A stretch of DNA of 64,000 bases. Source: Ginglymostoma cirratum. Lineage: Eukaryota. The translations under genes and the position numbers were made by a program. Where the stretch lies: positions 14,054,535 through 14,118,534 of the forward strand of contig JAHRHZ010000013.1 in assembly GCA_024137785.1 (NCBI GenBank), written 5' to 3'. Below the pieces are notes generated by a model. It did not search any database and was not told the DNA's origin. It saw only the letters and a list, made by a program, of their open reading frames with translations. Position 1 is the first letter of the stretch. Every line of letters begins with the position of its first letter. This document shows, in pieces, positions 1 to 64,000 of the stretch.

Positions 1-132
1 TGTTCTGAAGAAGGGTCTAGGCCCAAAACGTCAGCCTTCCTGCTCCTCTCATGCTGCTTTGCCTGCTGTGTTCATCCAGCTCTACACCTTGTTATCTCAG
101 ATTCTCCAGCATCTGCGGTTCCTACTATCTCT
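1..132 (+). mobile_element. Penelope-like terminal repeat fragment with hammerhead-like core (G12 mutated)
   Basis: CTGAAGA-A-GGGTCTAGGCCC-AAAA-CG-TC-AGC followed by the family tail also seen at 4230, 44534, 55507 and 57125. Confidence 0.75.
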
Positions 133-4229: not shown

Positions 4230-4314
4230 TCTAGGCCCGAAACATCAGCCTTGCTGTTCCTTTGATACTGCTTGGCCTGCTGTGTTCATCCAGCTCTACA
4301 CCTTGTTATCTCAG
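4230..4314 (+). mobile_element. Penelope-like terminal repeat fragment
   Basis: ctaggcccgaaacatcagcc...ttcatccagctctacaccttgttatctcag, same family as 1-132; CTGAAGA box missing. Confidence 0.7.
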
Positions 4315-5409
4315 AGGCCAATAACTGTCCATTTAAGGGCATCAAGCAGCTACTGCTGCTAATAACCAAGTGGTGCACATGGGTACTCCAAGTGCCGATC
4401 ATGACAAGGAAACCCCGGTGATGTTACTTGCAGGATCCTATGGGGGGAGGTTTCTGTGCAAAGGTACTTGATGCCGGATCAAACGATCTTGCTGTGGGAA
4501 ATGGAAGTGCCCACGAAAGTACCCTCCTTCCTTTCTGCCAATTTTCCTTCACAACTCCCTCACTTGCACCCTCTGCCCTGTGATGGCTTTTCCAGCAGCA
4601 CCCACCTTCGGCTGGATCCTTTCCCAATCTGAACCTCAAGTGAAGCTTAGTACTGGAAGCAGACACCTACTCTGCTGAGTACACAAAGCTTGCTGGCTCT
4701 ACATTGATTGGTGCTCTCAACAAGCAGGGCATTCGCCTCAGGGTCCTTGATTCTAGGGAAAATCTACCACTGGCCTATTAAGTGCCTGAGTGGCAAATAA
4801 TCCTGTGAGATTTATCAAAAAGATGCATTACAGGAATCACTCAGTCTCTCCAGCCAGTGTCTAAGACCACTGTCACCTCTGCAAGATTCTCAACTTTATT
4901 TCTAAACGAAAATGGCACCCATAGCGATAAAAATAAGGGAGCTATCCAAACAAATGTTTGCAGCCACAATGCACAATAAGTTGAAGAGCCTTTGAAAAAA
5001 CATAATTGGTTAGCGTTTTTGGTTCAATCTTTTGGGTGACGAATCATATCAGAAATGTTAACCTACTTCCCTTTTAACCTTTGATCAGCATGCTCTATAT
5101 TTACAGTGTTTCATTTCAGCTTTCCAGGACACATCTGGCATTTCTTCCCGTTCTGTCAGTACACGTGAAGTAATGGCTGTTTTAAATTCAGTAGGAAATG
5201 TTACTTTCAGCTCAGCGAGGCATTTTGCAAAAGGAAAGTAATTTTAAAAGAATATACAGGTGGAATATAGTTTAGCACATTCTATTTTGTGCCATACACT
5301 CTTCAAGCTGACCAGTTTGAAGCATGTTGTTTGAAAAAAGAAGTGTTTTGAAAATCCTTTCAAACCATGTCTTGACCAACATTAATTCTGAGTGTTATTT
5401 TTTTCCCAG

Positions 5410-24369: not shown

Positions 24370-24746
24370 TATAGTCATACAGTTATAGAGTCATAGAGTC
24401 ATACAGCACACAAACAGATCCTTCAGTCCAATCAATCCATGCTGACTATGTTCCCAAGCTAAACTAGTCCAAACTGCCTGCATTTGGCCCACATTGCTCC
24501 AAACCCTTCCTAATTCATGAATATATCCAAATGCCTTATAAATGTTGCAACTGTATCTGCATCCACCACTTCCTCTGGTAGGTCATTCCACACATGAACC
24601 ACTCTGTGTAAAAAAGTTGCCCCTCATATCTTTTTTAAATCTTTCTCCTTGCACCTTAAAAATGTGCCCTCTAGTTTTGAACTCCCCCACCCTAGGGACA
24701 AGACTCTTGTCATTCACCCTGTCTATGCCCCTCGTGATTTTATAAA
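24370..24746 (-). mobile_element. CR1 LINE 3' end
   Basis: YKITRGIDRVNDKSLVPRVGEFKTRGHIFKVQGERFKKDMRGNFFTQ and terminal (tctatgac)n octamer repeats. Confidence 0.9.
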
Positions 24747-24749
24747 CAT

Positions 24750-24836
24750 AAGGGTTATATCCGAAACGTTGACTGCTCCTTCTCTCCAGATGCTGCCTGG
24801 CTTGCTGTGTTCTTCCAGCCTCCTGTTTGTCTACCT
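24750..24836 (+). mobile_element. Penelope-like terminal fragment (related subfamily)
   Basis: A-GGGT-TAT-ATCC-GAAACGTT-GAC followed by gatgctgcctggcttgctgtgttcttccagc. Confidence 0.7.
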
Positions 24837-30400: not shown

Positions 30401-30415
30401 TATGATTAGTTCAGG

Positions 30416-30605
30416 AATAACAAAGAATGGAGCTGGAGGAACACAGCAGGCCAGGCAATATCAGAGGAATAGGAAAGCTGATGTTTAGGGTCGGGACTCT
30501 TCTTCAGAAAACCTCTGGTGCCGCCTGGCCACACAGCCTGCTGTGTTCCTCCAGCTCCACACTTTGTTATCTCTGACTCCAGCATCTGCAGTTCTTGCTA
30601 TCTCA
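30416..30605. mobile_element. Foldback Penelope-like mini-element with 14-bp TSD
   Basis: Inverted arms; TSD atgattagttcagg at 30402-30415 and 30606-30619. Confidence 0.85.
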
Positions 30606-30829
30606 ATGATTAGTTCAGGGTTTGTTTTGTATTATTAATGTGCTGATTGATAACGTTGTTGCGTGAAGTGTTTTGCCTTTATTGAGTGATGTTGACCAAG
30701 GAAATTTCATGATAAGTAGTCTGAAATGAATATACTATGAGAGAAAAGTGAACCCAACTTAGGGCTGGGCAAGTTACTATTAACTAAAGCAGTGTCACCA
30801 AGTAACATTCTCATCCCTTCCGTAGTGGA

Positions 30830-31953: not shown

Positions 31954-32066
31954 TAAGAAGAGTCCCGACTTGAAACATGAACTTTCCTGCTCCTCTGATG
32001 CTGCCTAGCCTACAGCTCCACACTGTGTTATCTCTGACTCCAGCATCTGCAGTTCTTATTATCTCT
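31954..32066 (+). mobile_element. Penelope-like terminal repeat fragment
   Basis: aagaaGAGTcccgACTtGAAAcat, then the family tail ending atctct. Confidence 0.75.
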
Positions 32067-34136: not shown

Positions 34137-35020
34137 CGGCTGGATTTCATGGAACTAGGGGGTGACCGACCGACCGACCGACCTACCTACCTACCTACCT
34201 ACCAGAAGGAAAATTGGTCCCTAGTTCCACCCCTCAGTCGTGAGGTCCTGCCTTTGAAATCTGTTTTTTTAAATTTCAAAAAACATGCTTTATTCATGAA
34301 AGTATCTTTAAATACATATGCAGTTACTAAACCAGTTTTGTTCTGTACAGGAGCATATGAAAAAACAAATAAACATTGGAGATAACAAGGTGTAGAGCTG
34401 GATGAACACAGCAGGCCAAGCAGCATCAGAGGAGCAGGAAGGCTTTTCAGAGATAGTAGGAATATTGACTCTTTGAAAGCTGCTAGTCAATCTGATTGGT
34501 GGGCAGCTCTTGTATTCCCTATGGTGTCAGGACTCACTGGCAAGCACTACTGGGGAAGCTAAGCCCATTGGAGGTCATGGTGAGCATAGACAATAAAGTC
34601 TTGGGATTTTAGAGCACAGAGGGACTGGAGTGCCTTGAGAGAGTCAGAGGGCAGTGGGGGACCCGATCTTGAAGGCCAAGTAGGGACAAAAGTTGTAACA
34701 TCTTGAGGAAAGAGTGTCCTCAATGCACATTGGGCAGCCCCTCAAACATGTGCCTTTGCATTCTGGCCCACCAACTACTGCCCACTTTGTCATGGCCGTG
34801 GAATTAGGTTGAAGCTCTTAATTGCCAATTAATTGTACGGTTAAGGGCCTCATTAGGCCTAAGAGTCAGCAGCTTGATGGGTGACTTAACCACACCCCGT
34901 ATAATATGGAGAACAATTGGGAAGGAACTGGACTGGGCACCTAATATATTTTACATGCTACCTACCCATACCAAAGACAGACCTTGTGTTTGTACAGGTG
35001 TGGGGCATAAATTTCAGTGC
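34137..35020. mobile_element. Candidate Harbinger-type MITE containing a nested Penelope fragment (34379-34460, minus)
   Basis: Degenerate inverted ends ggctggatttcatg / cataaatttcagtgcc. Confidence 0.4.
34163..34203. repeat. Compound (GACC)n(TACC)n microsatellite
   Basis: Seen directly. Confidence 0.9.
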
Positions 35021-37614: not shown

Positions 37615-39665
37615 GTATTTCTCTTGCTTCCTACATAGTATTCACTTCATGAGTCCACTGCTTGTAGTCTATTTGAATTGATTTATGGCCTCCAAACTCA
37701 TCAAAGGAAAGTTTTTTGTCTTGAAGAATGAGTCTTCAATGTTAGGCCATGTATCCATGTTCTGAGAGCAGCTCAGGACAATCTAGCAGGTAACTAACCT
37801 CAGAATACTACAACCAACCATGAAAAAAAATGAGCTGACGAGCTTGACCAGGCCCTGAACATTTCAGTCGGTGAATAAGGGCTTAGGATTACTGCCTTTA
37901 CAAGGTGAACCACTGAAAGCATAGTGCAAGGGTCCATATTGGATATCAAAATGATTGGGAAAGCAAATGATGCAATTGATACTCCAGATCATCAGGAAAA
38001 AGGATTGGCTGTGTTCCATCAATACATTGAAGCTATATCACTATCAGGAAACCAGTATAGATGTGTCAGGTGATAAAGAAGGGGAAAATGAAAGAAACAG
38101 TGAGGATGATGTAGAAGAGGGCCTAGACAATTTTTATATTGGACTACCTACTATCTGGTTAACTAACACTAAAATGTTAATAAGATTTGACACCTTTCGT
38201 AGCTTCACAGCTTTCTTATTTAAAGACCAAGGAACAAAACAGGGTTACTCACTGAATTTAAAGGCATCTATAAGGAAAAACTAATATATACAACCTTAGT
38301 GAACATGATGTGAATATGTGAGAATCCTTTCTTATAAAACAATATTCTTATCACGTAAATCCAAAGAAACTGGCCCGGAAAACTGAAAATTGAAACCCAA
38401 TATATGTTGGAAAGCCGTCTAACTGAACCCAAGCAATGCAGATGGAGTTCCCCAGTAATAGAGATAAAAGGTACTGCAGATGCTGGAGAATCTGAGATAA
38501 CAAGCATGGGGCTGGATGAACACAGCAGGTCAAGCAGCATCATAGGAGCAGGCTCATTCCCCAGTAATGTTAGCTTGATGGTTTAACTGAATTCTGCACA
38601 ATCTACTGAAAGGTCATTACAGTATCAAAGTCAGGGACCTACCCAATTGCTTGCCTTGGAAACTTTATTGATGAAGTTAGCAGGTTTTTTTACCAAAGCT
38701 GATTTGTTATAGATATACTGCAAAGATGCTTTAATATGTAGAACTAAACATATATCAACCTTTGTCACATCAGGTGATCTTTTCCAATGCTAAGTGATGC
38801 CAGTTGGGTTAAAAAATGTTCCAGCACCTCCCCAAAGACTGATAAACTAAGTAGTAGCCAGTGTTCATAATTGTGTAATTTATGTTGACGTTATGCTGGT
38901 ATAGAGTGAAATATGAGAGCATCACTTGCAACAACAAGAGGCTTTGTTTGGGAATTTACAATCATCTGATTTAGTGATAAACCATGCCAAAAGTGAATTT
39001 GCAAAGTTGCGAGTAACTTGCCTCAGGGAAATAGTAGGATAAGGGCAAACTTGTGACCAAGAATAATTAAAGTACAAGAATTAATGGATTTCCTTGATGC
39101 TAGAGCTTAATGAAAAGTAATAGGAATTTTTGGGGAAGCGTATTTTCTTTTGCAGGTTTGTACCAAATTTCAGCAATATGGCCTGTCCACTGACAAATCT
39201 GCTTCAAAGTAAATGCAAGGCGATATGGTCAAGCATCTTTGGAAAAGATTAGATTTGGCTTGATCAATTAAGCAGTGCCGACTGCCCTGCATTTCACTAA
39301 GTCCTTCAAGGTATCAATTGATAATGAAGATTTGGGTGCGGTTCTGTTACAAAAACACAGTTCGGGCATTGAGAACCCAATAGGATACTTTTCTGAAAAG
39401 CAAATTCAACATAAAAAGAATACTCAATGCTGGAAAGAGAAACCCTGGGATTGCTACAGGCTCTTAAACAGTTTGAAGGATGTTCATCGTGGCCGCAGAG
39501 AACAGTTGGTATACACTGATCATAACTCATTAGCCTTTGTCGAAAAATACAAAAATAAAAATTCCAGATTGTTTCAATTGTGTTTGCCATTACAGCCTCA
39601 TCTTTTCAAGAGTGTTTTCCCTGTGATGTGAACAATGTAATCAGCAGTGTTTTGTCAAGAATATA
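37615..39665 (+). mobile_element. Ty3/Gypsy LTR retrotransposon pol relic with INT-RT-RNaseH order (Gmr1-like)
   Basis: Integrase end HEST..FELIYG (37648-37690) and LLPLQGEPLKA*CKGPY (37889-37940). Then RT VMPVGLKNVPA..QRLI..CVIYVDV..AKSEFAK (38790-39010). Then RNase H FTKSFKVSID..GAVLLQ..PIGYFS..VYTDHNSL..NSRL (39290-39570). Confidence 0.85.
38460..38556 (-). mobile_element. 5'-truncated Penelope-like tail with 12-bp TSD
   Basis: TSD ttccccagtaat at 38448-38459 and 38557-38568. Confidence 0.85.
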
Positions 39666-39717: not shown

Positions 39718-40260
39718 ATTGAATGAATTAGCTTTTACTGTCATGTACTCATTTGCATGAGTACGTGAAAAGTTTACAAGCTGCCGCTTATGGTGTCATC
39801 TTAGGTACAAATGTACCTAGGCACAGAATTTTAGTACAAAGCAGAAAAGTAAATAAAGCAGGTTAAGAAATTACACATCCCAGTCCCACACAGTAAAAGG
39901 TAGAAAAACAAGAATTACAGCTAATAGTTTAACATCGCAGTCTGTACGTGCTTGGCCATGTTGGGCTTGCACTCCTCAAGGGCTTGATGCCACACTCACT
40001 GTCGCCTCAGGGCTGCCTGCTCCCACTGTCACTGCCTTGGGGGTGCTTGTTCCTGATCTCACTGTCTCAGGGCTGCCTGCTCCCACTGTCGCTGCCTTTT
40101 CCTGCTCTCACCGCCTTGGAGCTGCCTGTTCCTGATCTCACCGCCTCGGGGCTGCCTGTTCCTGATCTCACTGCCTCGGGGCTGCCTGCTCCCTTTCTCA
40201 CCACTGCTTGGGATGTCTGCCATTGACAGTGGGGACCATTCTTGCCATGGACTCGCACCT
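39718..40260 (-). mobile_element. Non-autonomous retroelement with Rex1-like 3' tail and internal tandem repeats
   Basis: Reverse complement has gtacctaagatg...cttttcac...gagtacatgacagtaaa, shared with 62150-62245 and similar to the Rex1 tail at 44410-44455. Confidence 0.6.
39995..40212. repeat. ~30-bp minisatellite (~7 degenerate units)
   Basis: Unit gggctgcctgttcctgatctcaccgcctcg. Confidence 0.85.
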
Positions 40261-40689: not shown

Positions 40690-42720
40690 AGGGTGGGCTA
40701 TGGCAAGATTAGAGGCAGAATTGCACTAGAGGTCCAACAAGGCCTCACTTGACTTAGGGCACAACTTGCTGTATCTTTTGTGCATCTGTTAAGTGACATG
40801 GTGAATTACTCACAATGCAACAATGACTTGGCAATTAAGAGGGATTACAGCTTGTTAAATGCCTTATTAACTCCAGAACTCACCTCATTAATATTCAGGT
40901 TCCTATCTTACCCAAGGTGCCAATCAGGCTCGACATTGAGAATTATGGACAAGGAAGTCAGAGCATTCAGCTCGTCACTTGCTCTATGCTGGGCACTAGG
41001 CACCAGTGTTTCAATGGCACCTGCCACTCTCAACCCATGTTCACATATACAGAGTTCTGATAAAGAATCACTGGACCTGAAACATTAGGTCTGCTTTTTC
41101 CCCACAGACTTGCTGAGTTTCTGCAGCTATTTCTGATTTTGTTCCACATCCACAGACATTGGGATTTGATGTGTACTCTAAGGACTCTCATGACACATGT
41201 CCATTCACTAACATGACACTTCTAGGTTCCAAAGCTGTACCTCATATGACACCAGCAATGATTACACTATTGTAACACTGCAGCAAGGTTACTGTGTGCT
41301 CAGGGATACACATCCAGCTCATTGCCCACACAAGGTTGTTCACCATATCCAGCCTGTTCACCTCCTATCATAGCACCCATACTCACCCTGGATGCTCACA
41401 GCATTCTGCCTGGCCTGGTCTTTCCTCTTTACACTTTGCCCTTCAGCCAGAAATCCTAGCTTCACGGTGCTGGTGTCTTTCCCTGATTTCTCATGCAAAT
41501 ACAAAGCCAGAAAGCTTGTCATAGTTGTCCGCATTGCTCAGTCAAGTTGAGGGTAACAGGTTTGTGACTGGTGTGGCACAGTAAGACAAGAACAGCCTCT
41601 GATACCATTGCAAGGGCTTGGACATGGTGAAACAGCTATTTGGGCAGTTCAGCGTCAGGCTGTTTTCCACACAAGGGGTTAGGAACTAAATGTCACTCAG
41701 GCCACCATCCAGCTTCACTTTTTTTGTCCTGTTGTAGACTGTTTGCCTCCTGGAGTGAGAGACAGGCAGATATTTAAGAGAGATGAATGTACGTAACACA
41801 GCTGTTACTTTGGCTGCAGGTGGAGAGGTGCCTGAAGAAAGGGAGTAAGCAGTGCAGAGGGCATGTGGGGTTAGTGATGTCAGGGGTTGGGATGGGTGAT
41901 AGTCAGTCAGTGGGGGAAAACATTACAGGTAATGGTGAGAGTGGTGGTGTATGAGCCTTGGTGGTAGGTGGATGCAGTAGCAGAGATAGTGAATGTAAGA
42001 TATCTGAGAGAGGATATGACACTTACGCTAGTAAACTGGAGAAGGATATTGACTCCCCTAGATGGCTGAGAACGGAGCCTGAGAACGGTGGCAACTTCTG
42101 ACCAGTCTGGCATGTTCTGGTATCATAGCCTTGGCTACCAGTCCTAGAGGATGAGGACCTCTCACCTCTGCGCCATTCTGTTCAGCTGGACCTCCAGGTC
42201 CCTGCCTGCAAAGTAAGGTGCCAAATTTCCTTTTTCCACCATGTCCAGGGCAAATGTCAGGAACTATGCACAGCAGCTCTGATAGTACATTGTATATGTC
42301 TGTGTGTGTGATTTTGTGTGTGTGTGAGCATGTGTGTAAGTGTGTTTTTGTGTGTGTATGAGCATGTGTGTGTATGTATTTTTGTGTGTGTTTTTGTGTG
42401 CATGTGAGCATGTGTGTGTTTTTGTGTGTGTCTGAACGTGTGTGTGTGTATTTTTGTGTGTGAGTGTGAGCATGTGTGTAGTATGTGTGTGTGTGAGTCT
42501 GCATGCATGTGTGTGTGTCTGTGTGTGTGTTTGTGTGTGTATGTGTTTGCGCCTGAGTGTGCGTCTGTGTGTCTCCTGTCCCACACTGCTAGAGGTATCA
42601 CAGTTATTGAGTACATGCAGAGTAGTTTGAGTGAAGCAATAAATTTCACTTCTGCATGGTGGACCTAGCTGTTCCTCTACTGCTTCAGGCAAACCACTGA
42701 ACACCCTTGTGTGGGAGAAT
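40690..42720 (-). mobile_element. Harbinger-related Myb/SANT-like element (copy B)
   Basis: GRDLEVQLNRM...PDWSEVAT...GVNILL on the minus strand; collinear with 17820-19660. Contains a PLE fragment at ~41052-41143. Confidence 0.55.
42290..42575. repeat. Long degenerate (TG)n microsatellite
   Basis: Seen directly; it produces the spurious His/Thr- and Cys/Val-rich ORFs. Confidence 0.95.
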
Positions 42721-44400
42721 TATTGTAAATCTTAACTGTTTTTACAAAGACCTGTGGCAATGTATTTCATATCTTGAGATGCAGCAGATCCAAAATATGA
42801 CAAAATATATATATATTCCAGCATCTGCAGCACCTTTTATCTCTGATATAATGTTTGTTACTTTTTCTGTTAGAATGTAATGCAGAAAATTCCCACAAGG
42901 ATTTTCTAAATTAATGTTTCTACCAACTTTTAACACAAGGGAAATTTTATACTTTTTAATTTGGGTGCTTCCGCCTGTGAGGTCAGTTTGATTTCATTTC
43001 ATTTTCTACTACACATTTGTCCTCTTTACATATTTTTCCGGTATATTCACTGTCGACAATATGAGTCATATGTTACAAAACTCCACAAGCAAATTTGTTA
43101 AACTCATTCTTTTGAGAACCCACTGCGGGAATTAGCAAATCGAGTCTAATCTCTGCTAGGGTTGAATGTGTGCGTTTTAATTATAATGACTGCTGTTAGA
43201 GCAACTCTCATCCAGGTGTTTCTTTTGGCAAGCTACACTGGCACCTAGTGTCAGCCTCTACAATTTGCTGTGAATTTCCAAGCAACCAATTTCATTGGAA
43301 AACCGGTAGTCATGCATTAATTTATGCTAAGTTGCACTTTTATTTTACATTTTATATTGTCATCAGCAGAACCATGACTCATAGGTCAGTTTCATTTATA
43401 CATTTCAGTTGTATTTGAATCATATCATTTTCACTTGACACTAGCTGCAGGCTCTACCACTACCAGAGACACTCAGACAACTGACCCCATTATGAATCTG
43501 ATGGGTGTTCAGTCTTTGATTTTTTTTGATACGTTAATGGTTGCTGGCAGACATTTCTCCTGTCCAGACAAGCTGTTAATTAGTAATGGGGATGCTTTGA
43601 TAGAAACCCTAGTTTAGCCATGAATTTGTCACAATGAAGTGCATCTATACTAATTGATTGGCAGCATGATGGTTCTCCAATTGCTGTTTTAGTTCAGAAG
43701 CTGGGAGACTGGTGTCTGGGAGCCAGCACCTCGTGTTTAGACTGACAATTCCTGTAATGTGTCAGAAATCTCATGAACCCACTTTATCCATGAATTAATT
43801 TTGAATGGTCCAGGCTGGTTAGGGGCACTGAGTGATGATACAACTGATATCAAGTGTTGAGGGAGTGTTTGATTTTACTACTGCTTTGTTGTTAGGATTG
43901 CATATTCTATGGTCACTGCCAGTAGAATTCTTTCACTAACAGCTTCTTAGTTTACGTTTCTTCAAATGTTATGGAAACATGAGCTAAACTCTTTGATCTG
44001 CTTTAAGCCTAACTCTTTGCTGAAACACGAACTGGCCATCAAAGATGGAGAATAACATTTTGTGAATTCTGGAATGTAGTGGCTGACAGAAAGAGAGATT
44101 TCATGCAGCCTGATTGCATTCATAGCCCACAGCACATAACACAGAAAGCTGCAAGGAACATCAATTGGCCACAGTGATTAAAACATGTCAGTAAATCAGA
44201 AGTCTTCACAGAGTAGAGGAAGAAAAGAGTGCCCAGAAAGTTCACCAGTGGGAACAGCATGAGGAAATGGGGTGTGGTCATTGCTATTAAAGGATCCCAC
44301 TAATGAGAGCTAGACCCAGCCAATATCACAGAGCATTAGAAATAGAGCATAGCTCTTTGTAAGTATGAAGCATTCAAGGACACTGAGGATTAACAAGATA

Positions 44401-46380
44401 TTTTTTCAACGATCGATTTATTGTCACACGTACCCGAGTACAGTGAAAAGCTTTGTTTACGTGCAGCACAGGCAAATCATAGTAAGCAAGGGTGTACAGA
44501 TCAAAGCTTGTAAAAAAGACTTAGACAGAGGCAACAAGGTATAGAGCTGGATGAACACAACAGGCCAAGCAGCATCAGAGGAGCAGGAAGGCTGACATTT
44601 CGGGCATAGACCCTTCTTCAGAAGGGTCTAGGCCCGAACATTCAGCCTTCCTGCTCTGATGCTGCTTGGCCTGCTGTGTTCATCCAGCTCTACACCTTGT
44701 TATCTCGGCTTCTCCAGCATCTGCAGTTCCTGCTATCTCTTAGACAGAGGCATACGGGTTACATTGCACAGGCTGTGCACTAGGCGAGATCAACATTAGC
44801 AAGATCAGCATTATTTGAGGCTAGACAGCCCGTTCATCAGCCTAATAATGACTGGGAAGAAGCTGTTACTGAACCTGCTCGTGTGTGTGTTCAGGCTTCT
44901 GTATCTTCTGCCTGATGGAAGAGGTTGTAGGAGGTCATTACAGGGGTGGGATGTGTCTCTGATAATGTTGGCAGCCTTTCCGTGGCAACAAGTCATGGAA
45001 GTATAGTCCATGGATGGAAGGTTGGCTTCCATGATAGTCTGGGCTGTGCACACCACCCTCTGTAGTTTCTTATGGTCCTGGGCAGATCAGTTGCCATACT
45101 AGACCGTTATGCACCCAAACAGTATGCTTCTGTAGAAGACGGTGAGGGACCTTTTGGACATGCCAAATTTCCTGAGCTGCCTGAGGAAGAACAGGCATTG
45201 TTGTGCCTTCTTGACTGTCACATCTACATGGGAAGTCCAGGGTAGGTCGACAGTTATCATTACTCTGAGGAACTTGGTGCTCTTCACACTCTCAACCTCA
45301 GCTCCATCAATGCAGATGGGGGCATGTTCTCCTCCTTTCTTTCTGAAGTCAATGATCAGTTCTTTAGTTTTGCTGACGTTGAGAGAGAGGTTGTTTTCAT
45401 TGCACCCTGTCACCAAGCTCTCCATCTCCCTTCTGTATTTTGACTCATCATTGTTAGATATCTGCCCCACTGCGGTGGTATTGTCAGCAAACTTTTAGAT
45501 GGTGTTCATTTGGAATTTGGCAACACAGTGATGGTCTCAGAGTTTTGACATCAGTCTGGAGGTGATGATGGTGTTGAAGGTGGACCTGTAGTCAATGAGC
45601 AGGAATATACATAGGTGTCATTGTTGTCCAGATGGTCCAGATGCAGGGCTAGGGATATGGCATCTGCAGTGGACCTGTTACATCAGTAGCCAAATTGTAG
45701 GGGATTGAGACAGGCTGGGAGACTGGAGTTGATGGGGGCCATGACCATCCTCTCGAAGCACTTCATGATTATTAACGTCAGAGCTATTGGGCAGTAGTCA
45801 TTAAGGCACACTGCATGTGTTTTCTTTGGTACGGGGATGAGGGTGGCCTTCTTGAAGCAGGTGGGGACTTCGGCTTGTAGGATGGAGGGGTTGAAGATGT
45901 CGGTGAAAACCTCGGCCAGCTGTCCCCACAGGATCTGAGTGCTCGGCCGGGAACGCTATCCGGGCCTGTCACTTTCCTTGGGTTGACTCACAGGAAGGCC
46001 GATCTGACGTCTGCAGCAGAGACGGAGGAAACGAGTGTGTCCGGGGCTGTTGGGCAGGTGTCACCATGCCACTGGCATTCTGCTCACACCGAGCACAGAA
46101 AGCATTGAGCGAGTCAGGGAAGGATGTGTCTTTGTCCACTCTCTTGCTCTGCTTCATTTTGTGTCCCGTAATATTGTTTAGACCTCGCCATAGATGGTGG
46201 GAGCCTGTTTGGTAGGTTTGGGCCTCTAACTTGGTCCGGTACTGCTTCTTGTCATCCCTAATGTCTTTGTGGAGGTCACATCTGGATTTCTTCTTTTGGG
46301 CTGATTGATCCAACTTGAATGCTACACGTCTGGTCTTCGGTAGGGAGTGGATTTCCTGGTTCATCTAAGTTTTATGGCTA
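44401..46380 (-). mobile_element. Rex1/Babar LINE, 5'-truncated
   Basis: [33 protein letters not shown], and ISNNDESKYRRE..NNLSLNVSKTKELIIDFRK..KKAQQCLFFLRQLRKF (DUF1891-type region); tail cttttcactgtactcgggtacgtgtgacaataaa. Confidence 0.9.
44534..44738. mobile_element. Foldback Penelope-like mini-element with 14-bp TSD and intact hammerhead core on the minus arm
   Basis: TSD cttagacagaggca at 44520-44533 and 44739-44752. Minus arm 44592-44621 reads CTGAAGA-A-GGGT-CTAT-GCCC-GAAA-TG-TC-AG. Confidence 0.9.
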
Positions 46381-54136: not shown

Positions 54137-55506
54137 GTAACAACAGGTTGATAAAATACTAAGTGCAGCCTGCGTGAACAGAGCTCAGCCAATGCCAATT
54201 TTGGTTGGTAGACCAATGCCACCATTATGAGGTTTAATTCCTTTTGTGTGTTATTTTATCGCATTGATTAGTGTCCTTGCATTAAATTCCAATCACTGCT
54301 ACCTTTGACATGACTGCTAACTATTTAAATAAGCACAGAGGATGTGAAAACTTGCAATCACAGCAAAGATTCACAGGAAGTCCTTTTTTTAAAAGGGACA
54401 ATGTTTGCAGTGGAGTAAAGGGTTAATGATAGCTTCACTCTAAGATTAGCGCCTGAGCGTGTGCATAAAGAACTATTGAGAGTGGTATCAGATCATATTG
54501 AACCAGGACCCAAGCCTGTAGGGTTTTAGAGATTTCATCTCTTACTATTGCTTAAATTTACCTAAGTTCAACAGACCATGTTCATCGTCATTCCCCTGAG
54601 TGTACACATGATCTTACTACACAGTGGCAATGGTGAGCACACCCACAGAACTGGAGGCAAGTGACAAGGAGCTCCTGAAGTGAAGACTAGCAGCAGTACC
54701 GTGTTACCCTGAAGAACAAGGCCAGGCTGTGTTCTGACCATTGTCATTGGGGAAATCCTGAACAGCAGGCCAGGGGCGGGTGGTGGGAAGATTTCACGGC
54801 TCGCCTAGGTATGACAGCACGGTGTGGAAAACTTCACCCAATACTGACAAAATGTGAGAACAGCAGTAAACATGGCTAGCTGCAAAAATTCAGCCTTTCA
54901 CCTTGCGTAATAAATTGTCACAGATCAGACGCCTTCAGATAAATTGGAAAAGAAAGAGCCCTTTGAAGATCAGAATAGCAGAAGGTGTGAGAGAAACAAA
55001 ATGCAGTCAAGTCCATTAAAGGACCTTAACTGTGTGAATTCTGCCCAGACAGTATTGCGGGGAATCATGAGCACAAAGCAAAAGACCATTTCAGAGCTGG
55101 ATTAGTAGCATAGAATATTACAAATAGACATCAGTACATTGTAAATGCCTAGGATTGAGAGGATGCTGAGAAGCAGAATGAATTCCTCTTAGGGAAGTAT
55201 AAGAGGTCCACTTCAGGCTTTTAGCTCTCCTGATAATGCAGGCAGGCACACATGTTGAATTCTGGTAAGCAGATATTATGGGTAATAGCAAGAAAGCTAA
55301 TTTTAAATTTGATGTTGGGCCGATGTAGACCTTCTTTCAGATGTAATCCATAGTTGAGGCCAAAACATTCTCCAATGGCTTCCATTAAGAATGGGAGCTC
55401 AGAGAGTATTATTAATATTCTCTGCCACATGGGTCAGAGAATTAACAAACCACTCATTAGTAATATTGTCTAAGCAGTGACCCTGGACCATCTAATCTTG
55501 GATTCA

Positions 55507-55735
55507 GAGACAGTAAGAACTGTCGATGCTGGAGTCAACGGTAACACAGTGTGGAGCTGGAGGAACACAGTGGGCTAGGTAGCATCAGAGAAGCAGGAAA
55601 GCTGACGTTTTGGGTCAGGACCCTTCTTCAGAAATGAATACAGGTTTTCTGAAGAAGGGTCCTGACCCGAAACGTTAGCTTTCCTGCTCCTCTGATGCTG
55701 CCTGGCTTGCTGTGTTCCTCCAGCTCCACACTGTG
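55507..55735. mobile_element. Foldback Penelope-like mini-element with 14-bp TSD and two hammerhead-like cores
   Basis: TSD taatcttggattca at 55493-55506 and 55736-55749. Plus core 55649-55678 reads CTGAAGA-A-GGGT-CCTG-ACCC-GAAA-CG-TT-AG. Confidence 0.9.
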
Positions 55736-56184
55736 TAATCTTGGATTCAAATACTATTGCTCTGCTATTTCTTTTGAGCAGGATCCTGGCAAAACTATAG
55801 ACAAAACATCTGAAGGTTAAGTAACTTCCAACATTGTGGGCGAAGTGCAAAAGGTAGATGTCTGTAATCTTAAAGCAGTGGAAGAAGGGTTTATAGCAAT
55901 TTAATGACAAATTTAATGACAATTAGTCTTAACAAAGAGTCTCTTATTTTTAAGGATTTATATCAGTTCTGCCATTTCCATTTTGTAACAAGAGATCTAA
56001 TATGCTCAGTCTTATTGTTTGTTGGATCATTTCAACTCTGACAATCTCTTTCAAAATATTTTCTGTGTTGTCTCTGATGCTTCAATATACTTTTTAACAG
56101 GATCACACATTTTTTTTTTCACTTCACTGTGGCAATATTTGTAAATCGTACACTTTTAACTCCCCCAAACATCAATGAGATAAA

Positions 56185-56551: not shown

Positions 56552-57124
56552 CAGATTAATAGTTTCTGTAAGTCAATATTGGCAAGATCAATATTTGGCT
56601 TTTCATTAGCTTCTTGTAATTACTGGACAATCTGTAGGTGAGCTCTTTCTGTGTTGAGAAGTTTTTCTCTGATTATGTGAAGTTAGTGTTGATTTCCTTA
56701 CACTTTATTCTAAACGTGTGTTGCACACAGATAAGTTTTGCTACTAAATTGGGCATGTTATCCACAGCACCTGAAGCAATATTATGATACTGATTGTATG
56801 TTTTCATTGTTATAAATTTTTTACACAATATATACCAGGAGAAATGCATGTTATAAGGTGTAGTATGGCTCATATGATGTGATACTATGTATCCCTGCAA
56901 CAGTTACTCAATGATTTTATGTGCAATTTACACAGTTAGTGATCAATATCAGAGTGGGCTGAACTAAATTACATTTCTTGACATTACTTACTGGTTCACA
57001 GGCTAGGAACAATCATTTAGACGTACAAATTAATAAAGCAGTCGCATGAACGGTTGAAGGAATGTAATACAAAATTTTGGGAAAGAGTGCAATGTTAATA
57101 CACAGAAACCTATATATATATTAG

Positions 57125-57290
57125 AGATAAAAAGAACTGCTGATGCTGGAGTCTGAGATAACACAATAAGAAAGAATCTGGTCGGGACATTTCTTCAGAA
57201 AAATGAAGAAGGGTCCTGACCCGAAACGTCAGCTTTTCTGCTCCTCTGATGCTGCCTGGCTTGCTGTGTTCCTCCAGCTCCACCCTGTGT
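57125..57290. mobile_element. Foldback Penelope-like mini-element with 14-bp TSD
   Basis: TSD tatatatatattag (57111-57124) / tatatgtatattag (57291-57304). Plus arm reads TGAAGA-A-GGGT-CCTG-ACCC-GAAA-CG-TC-AGC. Confidence 0.85.
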
Positions 57291-58373
57291 TATATGTATA
57301 TTAGTATATCTAGATGAATATCAATAAATTTAAATCTTTCGTTCCCCATTGTAGGAGTCTGATTGCTTATTTATGTGGTTGTATGTATACGTTATTCAGT
57401 ATTTTTTCATTACCTCAAATTTTGCAGCACTAGGTGACTGTCTAGTTGGTGTAATAGTTTCAGCAGCCCTGAGGCTTCCTGTGTAATGAAGCCATTTTCT
57501 AATTTGATTACTGGTAGCTGCACTTGGTAGGGAAGCTTGATTTGTGCAACTCTTGGACTGGAAGCATATCGTGTGCCAATGATATTGCTTGCAATATTTT
57601 CCTATTTTTCCTGATCTGCCTCTTCAACACGAGTGTTACAGCAGCATTGAATAGAGATTCTTTGCAGTGGTGAAAACTTAGAGAAAAAAGTATTTGCATT
57701 GGCTGGCAACTTAAAAGAAGGGTCCCTACAGCCTCTTCACATTCTACATGTTCTGACAGCACTTTGAATTATGGCGCTGTAAAGTACCTACCCAATCTGT
57801 TAGTTTAATTACTGTACGGCTTGATTTGATCATTTATTTTTAGGCTATGGCAATTTTTTTTTCGCTAGTAAATATGCAGTTTTTGCAACTGCGTTCACTG
57901 ATCCCTGTCACTCAGTTGTTGCCAGCATGAAGCATTTTTCCAGTGGCATAGATCAATTTCCTGAATTTGAGTTTCAAATATTTGGCATCTTCATGTGTAA
58001 TAAAACATTATGAGCACAAGGTGGCAGAGTTCTATTTACATATTCATCAAATTTTACCTGGAAATTCTTAAAGCTGCAAATGATCTTCTTGTCTTCCTCC
58101 TGTTACTTGAAATATATTCAGGTGGGGCATCATGAGATTCAATATGGTTGAAATAAGCAGCCTGTGTCAATCTTTTCAATTGTCCTAAACTGAGAAAGAA
58201 CTGTCTATGCATTGACACTAGTAGGGAGTGGAATTGCTAATTTGTGTGGAAACATTTTTGATGGCGTTTTAAGGCAAAATATTTTGTAAATGAGGTGTGT
58301 TGGAAGTGCAGGCAAATAATACAATAATTGGACACATCAAAACACTTTTGATCAAGTTACCTCATCAGGTACT

Positions 58374-58811
58374 GAAAGCAAAAATTGCTGGAAATCACAG
58401 CGGGTCAGGCAGCATCCGTGGAGAGAGAGCAAGTTAACGTTTCGAGTGCAAGTGACTCTTCATTACAGCTCATGTGAAGCGTGGAGGGGGCAGCATTTAT
58501 GCAATAGTTTGGTGGTGGAGTGCTAGGGCAGAAATGGTGCTGATAGTGCAGATTAAGCGATCAGAGTGTGAGAATGGCAGAACAATGATGTGTCCGATTG
58601 CCAAACTGGAAAGAACAGACAGTCCTACTAGAATGGGGGGAGGGGAGAGAGGACACAGTGATAGAGAATTCAACAAGTAAAGCCAAAAGGCAGGGAATAA
58701 ATGGGAGCGAGTTCACAATCTGAAGGTGTTGAACTCAATATTAAATCTGGAAGTAAAGTGCCTTGAAAGATGAAATGTTGTTCCTCCAGTTTGCATTGTG
58801 TTTCGCTGGAG
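58374..58811 (-). mobile_element. Penelope-like element 3' end: endonuclease C-terminus, UTR and hammerhead-like motif
   Basis: Minus strand SSETQCKLEEQHFIF..GTLL..NIEFNTFRL* (typical RKLEEQHLIFRLGTL.P.GLN motif), followed by TAATGA-A-GAGT-cacttgc-ACTC-GAAA-CG-TT-AAC at 58432-58470. Confidence 0.8.
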
Positions 58812-58819
58812 ACAGAGGG

Positions 58820-58911
58820 TGGTGGTTAAAGGCTGTTTGTGCACTGGAGGCTGGAGCAGGGCTCAGTGCTGGGTCCCTTATTCTTTGTGATATACATAAA
58901 CAATATTGAAG

Positions 58912-58962
<51 letters not shown>

Positions 58963-62899: not shown

Positions 62900-64000
62900 C
62901 AGTCTGTTACCATTAAATGAGATCATGGTTAATCTAATAATCCTGCTTTTTCACCATAACCCTTAATTTCCTTACCAATTAAAAATCAGCCTTTAAGATG
63001 CTTAATAACTCAACCTCGACATCCCCCTCTGGTGGAAAATTCCACAGATTGACCACCCTTAGAGAGAAAAAGAATTCCTCTTCCCAAATGTTCGACTCCT
63101 CATAATGAGATTATACCCTCTTGTCCAAGACTTTCTCTGCATACACCCTCTTAAGCCCACTAAGAATATTATGGTTTTTAATGATGTTTCCTCTCATTTT
63201 CCTAAACTCCAATAATTACAAGGAAATACCGCCAAAAGTAAAAGATAGAGGGGCAGAATTAGGCCATTCAGCCCATCGAAGTCTGCCCTGCCATTCAATC
63301 ATGGCTCTTATGCTCCTCACCCATTTTCCTGCCTTCTCCCCATAACTCTTCAACCCATTACCAATTCAAAATCTGCTTAATCTCTCCTTAAATTTACTGA
63401 CTGTCCTAGCATCTATCGTACTTTGGGGTAGTGAATTCCACAGATTAACAACCGAGCTGGTTTGTTGTTCCGCAGACGTTTCATTGCCCTGCTGGGTAAC
63501 ATCATTAGTGCAGCCTCCGATGAAGCGCTGCTGTGTTTTCCCACCTGTTATTTAAACTCTGGGGCCTAAATAACAGGTGGGAAAACACAACATCACTTCA
63601 TCAGAGGCTGCACTGATGATGTTACCCAGCAGGATAATGCGGAACAACAAACCAGCTCAGCGAGCCAACCAACCACAATGTCCACAACCCAAGCTACAAA
63701 TCTACTTTAAAACCTTAGAGATTAAAAACCCTTTGTAAGAAGTAGTTTGTCCTCAACTCTGTTTTAAATTTGCTACCCCTTATCCTAAGACTATGACCGC
63801 TTGTCCTAGAATGCCCCACAAGAGGAAGTATCCGCTCCACATCTATTTTATCTATATCTTGAATACCTCAATTTGATCTCCCCTTATTCTTCTAAATTCC
63901 AGAGAGTATAGGCTTAAACTTCTCTTCATACGACAAACCCTTCATCACTGGGATCAATCTGGTGAACCTCTTCTGAACTGCCTCCAATGCCGTTACATCT
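62900..64000 (-). mobile_element. Two adjacent CR1 LINE 3' fragments (~62900-63220 and ~63245-64000)
   Basis: CR1 3' UTR aggccattcagccc...ccattcaatcatggct and gaattccacagatt in both fragments. Confidence 0.85.
63454..63716. mobile_element. Foldback Penelope-like mini-element of a second family, 14-bp TSD
   Basis: Arms 63454-63554 and 63567-63658 are inverted copies; TSD acagattaacaacc (63440-63453) / agagattaaaaacc (63717-63730); CTGATGA...GAAACGTC core. Confidence 0.85.

Follow-up and report, generated by a model that had tools for sequence, protein, structure and literature searches.

Four short insertions in a 64,000-nt stretch of the Ginglymostoma cirratum genome (hereafter the window) each consist of two inverted copies of one repeat, and one of them, foldback B, carries a candidate minimal hammerhead ribozyme where its arms meet. 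The question raised by this locus is whether such foldbacks move as a discrete, non-coding, ribozyme-bearing unit, as the first-pass annotation of the window suggested, or are made anew at each insertion by a larger element. All four were found exactly where that annotation had placed them, as hairpins of ∼170–230 bases with two inverted arms. Positions within the repeat unit are counted from the first T of TTCTGA (window position 3), with C3 at position 3 and the predicted cut at 30/31, and papers are cited from their accessible text. The arms of this family in the window are as follows.

30402–30619: foldback A with its target-site duplications (TSDs); insertion 30416–30605, perfect 14-bp TSD; minus arm, unit positions 0–94, G12 lost; plus arm, positions 59–130; filler of 25 nt
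44534–44738: insertion of foldback B, perfect 14-bp TSD on both sides
44520–44533: left TSD of B, 14 bp, perfect
44534–44623, minus strand: untailed arm of B, pseudo-LTR (pLTR) unit positions 1 to ∼92
44592–44623, minus strand: predicted minimal type I hammerhead motif of B; C3 at 44621, extra A, 4-bp stem II, GAAA, C15.2 changed to U at 44597, predicted cut between 44594 and 44593, stem I of 2 bp
44620–44623: junction overlap of B, a 4-nt microhomology (AGAA) common to both arms
44620–44738, plus strand: tailed arm of B, unit positions 7–130, tail at ∼44707–44738
44739–44752: right TSD of B, 14 bp
55493–55749: foldback C with its TSDs; insertion 55507–55735, perfect 14-bp TSD, filler of 9 nt; minus arm tailed, G12 changed to A; plus arm untailed, core intact, C3 at 55649
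57111–57304: foldback D with its TSDs; insertion 57125–57290, 14-bp TSD with one mismatch; plus arm from position 4, without C3; minus arm, positions 87–130 and rearranged filler
3–132, plus strand: single tailed arm of the same family, the reference unit, position 1 at window 3
4230–4315, plus strand: solo untailed arm starting at position 14
31955–32066, plus strand: solo tailed arm, older, with an internal deletion
34379–34444, minus strand: untailed arm starting exactly at 31, the first base past the predicted cut
38460–38552, minus strand: solo tailed arm starting at position 37

The standing of these foldbacks as insertions was borne out by the TSDs and, for B, by empty sites in paralogs of its older host repeat: among 13 loci matched in a search with the flanks of B, seven carry both flanks, and in two of these (L173 and L174) the flanks overlap by 13 bp, equal to one copy of the TSD. 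The host repeat, an older interspersed repeat, occupies window 44400–44960 outside B and is 72–86% identical to its paralogs at several loci. The two arms of the window foldbacks have different end points in the unit, position ∼97 in one and ∼130 in the other, an asymmetry that the first-pass annotation did not note. The claim that the arms meet at or near the CTGAAGA box holds for B and C; it fails for A, with a plus arm that begins only at position 59, and for D, with a minus arm made of positions 87–130 and a rearranged piece. A foldback of a second Penelope-like element (PLE) family at approximately 63456–63690 carries on each arm a hammerhead whose stem II is longer, and its arms join ∼55 nt upstream of the box of that hammerhead, close to a TAAATA motif; thus arms that meet at the box are not a general rule. 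Two segments, 24745–24819 (plus strand) and 58387–58447 (minus strand), are from related but older PLE subfamilies that differ in stem II sequence and have the same GAAACGUU core. The window also contains degenerate long (TG)n microsatellite tracts (42280–42575 and 58910–58960) and a 30-bp tandem repeat array (40003–40223).

The proposed fit of the core consensus to a hammerhead was confirmed at the level of sequence: a minimal hammerhead descriptor returned 53 matches in 964 kb of sampled genome against 0, 0 and 0 in three shuffles. The minus arm of B does keep all core residues, as had been claimed, with the qualification that C15.2 of the ACGU palindrome is now U and that stem I is only 2 bp because the other arm replaces its upstream sequence. 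Among the eight arms of the four foldbacks, all core residues are kept only in B-minus and C-plus; G12 is lost in A-minus and C-minus, and the remaining four arms are missing either the beginning of the box or the motif altogether, the plus arm of B being without the CUGA start and having a broken GAAAC. The extra A after A9 is real, but it is already a described feature of PLE minimal hammerheads (PMC4209133). The motif also resembles the type I hammerheads of metazoan PLEs in that paper in CUGANGA, in the position of the extra nucleotide at 9/10.1, in the G10.1–C11.1 pair, in the palindromic 15.2–16.2, in the lack of loop III and in occurring mostly as dispersed single copies; stem II is 4–5 bp here compared with 7–8 bp there. 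Stem I of this predicted ribozyme is 4 bp in the youngest shark subfamily and 2 bp in the others. The Rfam hammerhead models, which the annotation had put forward as a check, gave no match at E ≤ 5 in the window, where only sub-threshold miRNA hairpin matches were returned.

Among arms that cover the core, 69 of 96 have it intact, and stem II pairs are kept in 94–98 of 100. G12, which lies in a CpG, is changed in 21 of 138 arms, similar to other CpG sites (37/280), and non-CpG core changes amount to 2.2% compared with a 3.6% background (P = 0.012, raw), or 1.8% compared with 3.2% (P = 0.06) with subfamily and end clipping controlled. Stem changes within the family are one-sided only (U-G/U-A, two pairs), and differences between subfamilies fall in N7, in loop II and in wobble pairs, which fits constraint on a master lineage, without two-sided covariation. 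The predicted fold of B is a hairpin (z = −19), and a hammerhead fold, when forced, is predicted to lose to the hairpin by 38 kcal/mol for B, 53–54 kcal/mol for C and 10 kcal/mol for A, so that by these folding models the motif is likely inactive within the foldback.

The arms are the pLTR end of a young PLE that encodes RT and a GIY-YIG domain, which upholds the Penelope origin given by the annotation. Longer copies continue upstream into a C-rich UTR and then a GIY-YIG domain (PF01541, E = 7.9e-6), and a 948-aa frame in locus L161 contains RT (E = 3.5e-5, below Pfam's cut-off) and GIY-YIG, with the motifs DKG and YIDD and a CX4CXXC linker. The features of the Neptune clade are present: RT and EN are joined by a CX2-5CxxC linker, two cysteines lie in the stretch from GIY to YIG, and DKG occurs; the linker is assigned to Neptune and Nematis alike in PMC8557442. 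By tblastn no RT and GIY-YIG ORF was found within the window; such an ORF belongs to the parent and not to the short insertions (stubs). The unit lies downstream of EN; among 30 N-terminal loci found with BLAST it also sits directly upstream of the start of the ORF in 20, four of these abutting N. In four ORF-continuing copies the ATG is at unit position 169–170, and hence the ∼130-bp repeat is both pLTR and 5′ leader; for a fifth such copy, L199, the ATG was read as 245 because the anchor there was an upstream motif. The family is young and huge: the EN search gave 136,445 first-look candidates, of which the 150 that were scored have 97–100% identity, and 189 family arms in 964 kb correspond to ∼200 per Mb. 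The hammerhead is this parent's own motif and would travel with the arms passively.

To describe the ends of the arms beyond the window, we used a sample of the 4.36-Gb assembly (289 scaffolds) that comprised 98 stretches of 10 kb at round coordinates, two more beside the window, 40 further stretches adjoining N-free ones, and the window itself, in total 964,366 readable bases; the first 100 stretches and the window are 46% N. It held 202 arms; 29 of them, whose 5′ end lay at N or at the edge of a locus, were left out, and for the table of stop rates 13 arms of <76% identity and duplicates were also removed, leaving 152 unique gap-free ends. Hairpins appear to break this assembly. Runs of 10, 100, 400 or 3000 Ns that look like assembly gaps are often found at arm junctions, and long foldbacks may therefore be under-sampled. 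Runs of 400 Ns lie between arms in L045, L091, L093, L104, L120, L130 and others, and in some cases each side carries a copy of the junction.

The 5′ ends of these 152 arms are not random. Of 70 arms at risk, 34 stop at −5 to 0, that is 1–8 nt before C3, a rate of 0.081 per nt and ∼40 times the background, and stops remain frequent at +1 to +12 (37/107, 0.029 per nt) before falling to 0.009 per nt at +13 to +21 and to 0.0012 per nt at 22–28. The positions 29–45 give 15 of 132 (0.0067 per nt, ∼3 times background, a few of them artefacts of divergent families), and the remaining bins define the background of 0.0015–0.0024 per nt. Immediately upstream, at −20 to −6, none of 36 arms stops, and 36 of the 152 arms extend past the boundary. 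The same boundary is found in 41 of 97 solo arms, in eight of 16 ORF-continuing copies and in 11 of 21 young copies of one subfamily that were picked by their 3′ part and counted by eye. Because solo, young and ORF-continuing copies all have it, the boundary is a property of the family and not of the foldback.

An initiator-like CCATTTC overlaps the boundary, and we take this motif, presumably matching the initiator consensus, to be compatible with a transcript start. It is also conceivable that RT, on a longer or multimeric template, stalls at the first run of Cs lying upstream of the hammerhead and that the boundary is no RNA 5′ end. The boundary does adjoin a run of five Cs and 36 of 152 ends pass beyond it, yet the further C-runs just upstream stop none of the 36 arms at −20 to −6 and only six at −100 to −21, and we regard such a stall as rather improbable. 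A splice acceptor was rejected as the cause, the nearest pyrimidine tract with CAG being ∼20 nt upstream, where no ends fall.

The 3′ ends are bimodal, with 75 of 195 at 88–104 and 64 of 195 at 120–135; a TATCTC sequence precedes both places, and loose ends in RNA-seq coincide with the same two (∼97 and ∼130). In 36 of 41 classifiable pairs one arm is short and the other tailed, and this one-sided extra segment is the known PLE ‘tail’. TSDs of 13–16 bp flank 29 of 48 pairs compared with one of 150 control intervals. An inverted 5′-truncated copy, a one-sided tail and a TSD are together the mark of an EN+ PLE insertion, and the same head-to-head copy, 30–40-bp tail on one arm and TSD are described in PMC8557442, PMC3846280 and PMC2377424, as are junction microhomology or palindromes and pLTRs from partial tandems. 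The foldbacks thus have the architecture of an EN+ PLE insertion in miniature, the stubs being the shortest insertions left by a very abundant Penelope-type element. Unlike the insertions in the accessible text of those papers, the whole insertion here is often just two pLTR ends (123–245 bp) with a sharp 5′ boundary, and what is added to the known architecture is a quantified 5′ boundary common to stubs and ORF-continuing copies. The density of these insertions in readable sequence is ∼35–50 per Mb.

The idea of a discrete unit can be judged from the junctions. In its favour, 31 of the 35 unique gap-free foldbacks measure 123–245 bp, 10 of them have both arms at the boundary and 16 have one (nine have none), which makes 26 with at least one, and the 20-nt junction of B has 620 exact matches genome-wide, some of them assembly duplicates. 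Clustering of junctions and lengths had been proposed as the sign of such a unit, and the 5′ ends do cluster near the box with junction positions that are non-random; the junction sequences themselves are heterogeneous, with microhomology of 1–10 nt or filler, many carrying filler instead of overlap, and arm lengths range from ∼30 bp to >1.5 kb. By eye, all 35 of these foldbacks have different junctions, and with overall lengths from 123 to >1,400 bp the uniform length and internal sequence of a MITE-like element were not found. The B junction occurs with the boxes of both subfamilies (15 versus 18 in the first 33 matches listed), more than half of 29 loci chosen as B-like carry other junctions when compared by eye, and a second pattern gave 994 other short-gap junctions in one subfamily group alone, many of which use a TTTC microhomology. 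Long-arm foldbacks with the same asymmetry exist (e.g. L129, L170 and L176), the core is kept in only two of eight window arms, the hairpin is predicted to sequester the motif, and of 2841 RNA reads on locus B, 2839 match it only in part, the left flank having almost no depth. That the foldback is a discrete, non-autonomous element with a ribozyme and is copied as a unit is already largely refuted, and we consider it very improbable. Instead, the foldbacks are likely assembled afresh at each insertion from two ribozyme-bearing leader copies and do not move as a mini-element of their own.

On the whole the junctions lie elsewhere than at the predicted cut. Only four of 173 ends fall at 29–33, no clear genomic step in ends was seen at position 31, and a second class of ends from cleaved RNA, suggested by the local gap at 22–28, is unsupported by the genome-wide listing: among 100 of the 994 short-gap junctions looked at by eye, the shorter arm crosses the cleavage site in ∼59, stops at 31 in 7–11 (confounded by a T microhomology) and stops at 33–36 in about a quarter. 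The arm at 34379–34444 (minus strand) is directly preceded by a tail-end fragment (∼positions 117–134), a single case that is possibly a tandem or circular-type joint. A pairing of the box with the tail end, predicted in the youngest subfamily (L199:1190–1332 and the unit of L185), would join the 5′ end to the distal RT start; it was rejected as a general feature, with z = −0.9 in one subfamily only and, by eye, no conservation in the others. Dimer cleavage of PLE minimal hammerheads has been described (review PMC6765202), and since head-to-head arms place the motifs on opposite strands, a single transcript of a foldback cannot give the tandem pair needed for it.

Within a pair, the arms match each other at 283 of 318 subfamily-diagnostic sites (89%, compared with 56% expected), and thus they were made together. 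Alleles that are rare in the family are common to both arms at nine sites in five of 24 pairs, which fits one template, self-priming or later conversion equally. A mirror arm could in principle arise from the same parent, again as a one-off event, if at the quasi-palindromic box the cDNA primed itself or folded back, or an antisense template was copied; the 1–10-nt microhomologies at the joints, the agreement of arms and the shared rare alleles speak for this, and PMC3846280 argues for self-priming from palindromes at inverted junctions of rotifer Penelope elements. By itself, self-priming gives no reason for the split between ∼97 and ∼130 in 36 of 41 pairs nor for the 5′ boundary in 41 of 97 solo arms, and many joints carry filler, so we hold this route to be unlikely.

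We regard it as probable that each foldback arose in a single event as an insertion of two short pLTR-end copies, for which both nicked target strands prime RT in the leader RNA and both cDNAs run off. The geometry, the ends, the TSDs and the parent are observed parts of this mechanism. Nicks would be made 13–16 nt apart in the target, and both nicked strands would then prime cDNAs inside the leader at ∼97 and ∼130, which by analogy may be internal RT start sites because such sites were shown in vitro for the anole Poseidon element (PMC11167929), where two internal RT starts account for the tail. The cDNAs would run off the RNA 5′ end near −3, the boundary at −5 to 0 being the putative transcript start, and their ends would be trimmed by 0–15 nt before they anneal by microhomology or are end-joined with filler; long copies may come from priming in the downstream pLTR. 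In the Poseidon work both strands were cleaved and extended in vitro and uncleaved RNA was the main substrate, and the templates here would likewise be mostly uncleaved RNA. The best reading of the stubs is hence that they are abortive run-off cDNAs primed from both target strands. Poseidon of Anolis carolinensis has the same two 3′ ends ∼100–130 nt past the hammerhead and, in the accessible text of PMC11167929, no RNA-seq ends at the cut; it is described there without the CX2-5CxxC linker that the present family has, and the ORF here starts ∼40 nt past the tail and not inside stem II as in Poseidon.

Transcript data were compared with this reading. RNA-seq reads on the pLTR come equally from both strands, 91% run into unlike sequence, and no pile-up of starts or ends was seen, which the library type may not show; that a transcript start is not seen was counted against run-off. 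No pile-up of RNA ends was found at the cut site in runs X16 and X17, the latter uninformative with 387 reads, and X16 gave no sign of a transcript of its own from locus B. The contig runs X1 and X4 cannot show ends, and joints and loose ends at 1233 were left out because they arise artefactually from a 1-nt indel in the copy used as reference.

Non-LTR retrozymes (bioRxiv 10.64898/2026.07.22.740005) are, like the stubs, short, non-coding, pLTR-derived and hammerhead-bearing. They are head-to-tail tandems with a ribozyme in each unit, whereas the stubs are head-to-head with variable joints and mostly broken cores; head-to-tail units each with a complete hammerhead were not found in the window foldbacks, where two of eight arms are intact. 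In our searches of open-access papers we found no account of such Penelope stubs. Judged as a find among ribozymes or as a new mobile element, the foldbacks are ordinary.

Their meaning lies in what they record of the parent, since the stubs likely mark the start of the element's RNA and the start of its copying. How inverted pLTRs and the tail are formed and what the hammerhead does in PLEs are open questions in the accessible text of PMC8557442 and PMC11167929, and the minimal insertions of this young family, hundreds of thousands in number, offer exact predictions for in vitro work: an RNA 5′ end at −5 to 0, RT starts at ∼97 and ∼130 and a stagger of 13–16 nt. More tentatively, and with our confidence a little short of an even call, the stubs may be the PLE counterpart of retroviral strong-stop DNA, formed by two RT primings in the 5′ pLTR and run-off at the capped 5′ end. 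If this is true, ∼100,000 genomic foldbacks would map in vivo the transcript start, both RT starts and the 13–16-nt endonuclease stagger, and uncleaved RNA would be the template of a Neptune-type element.
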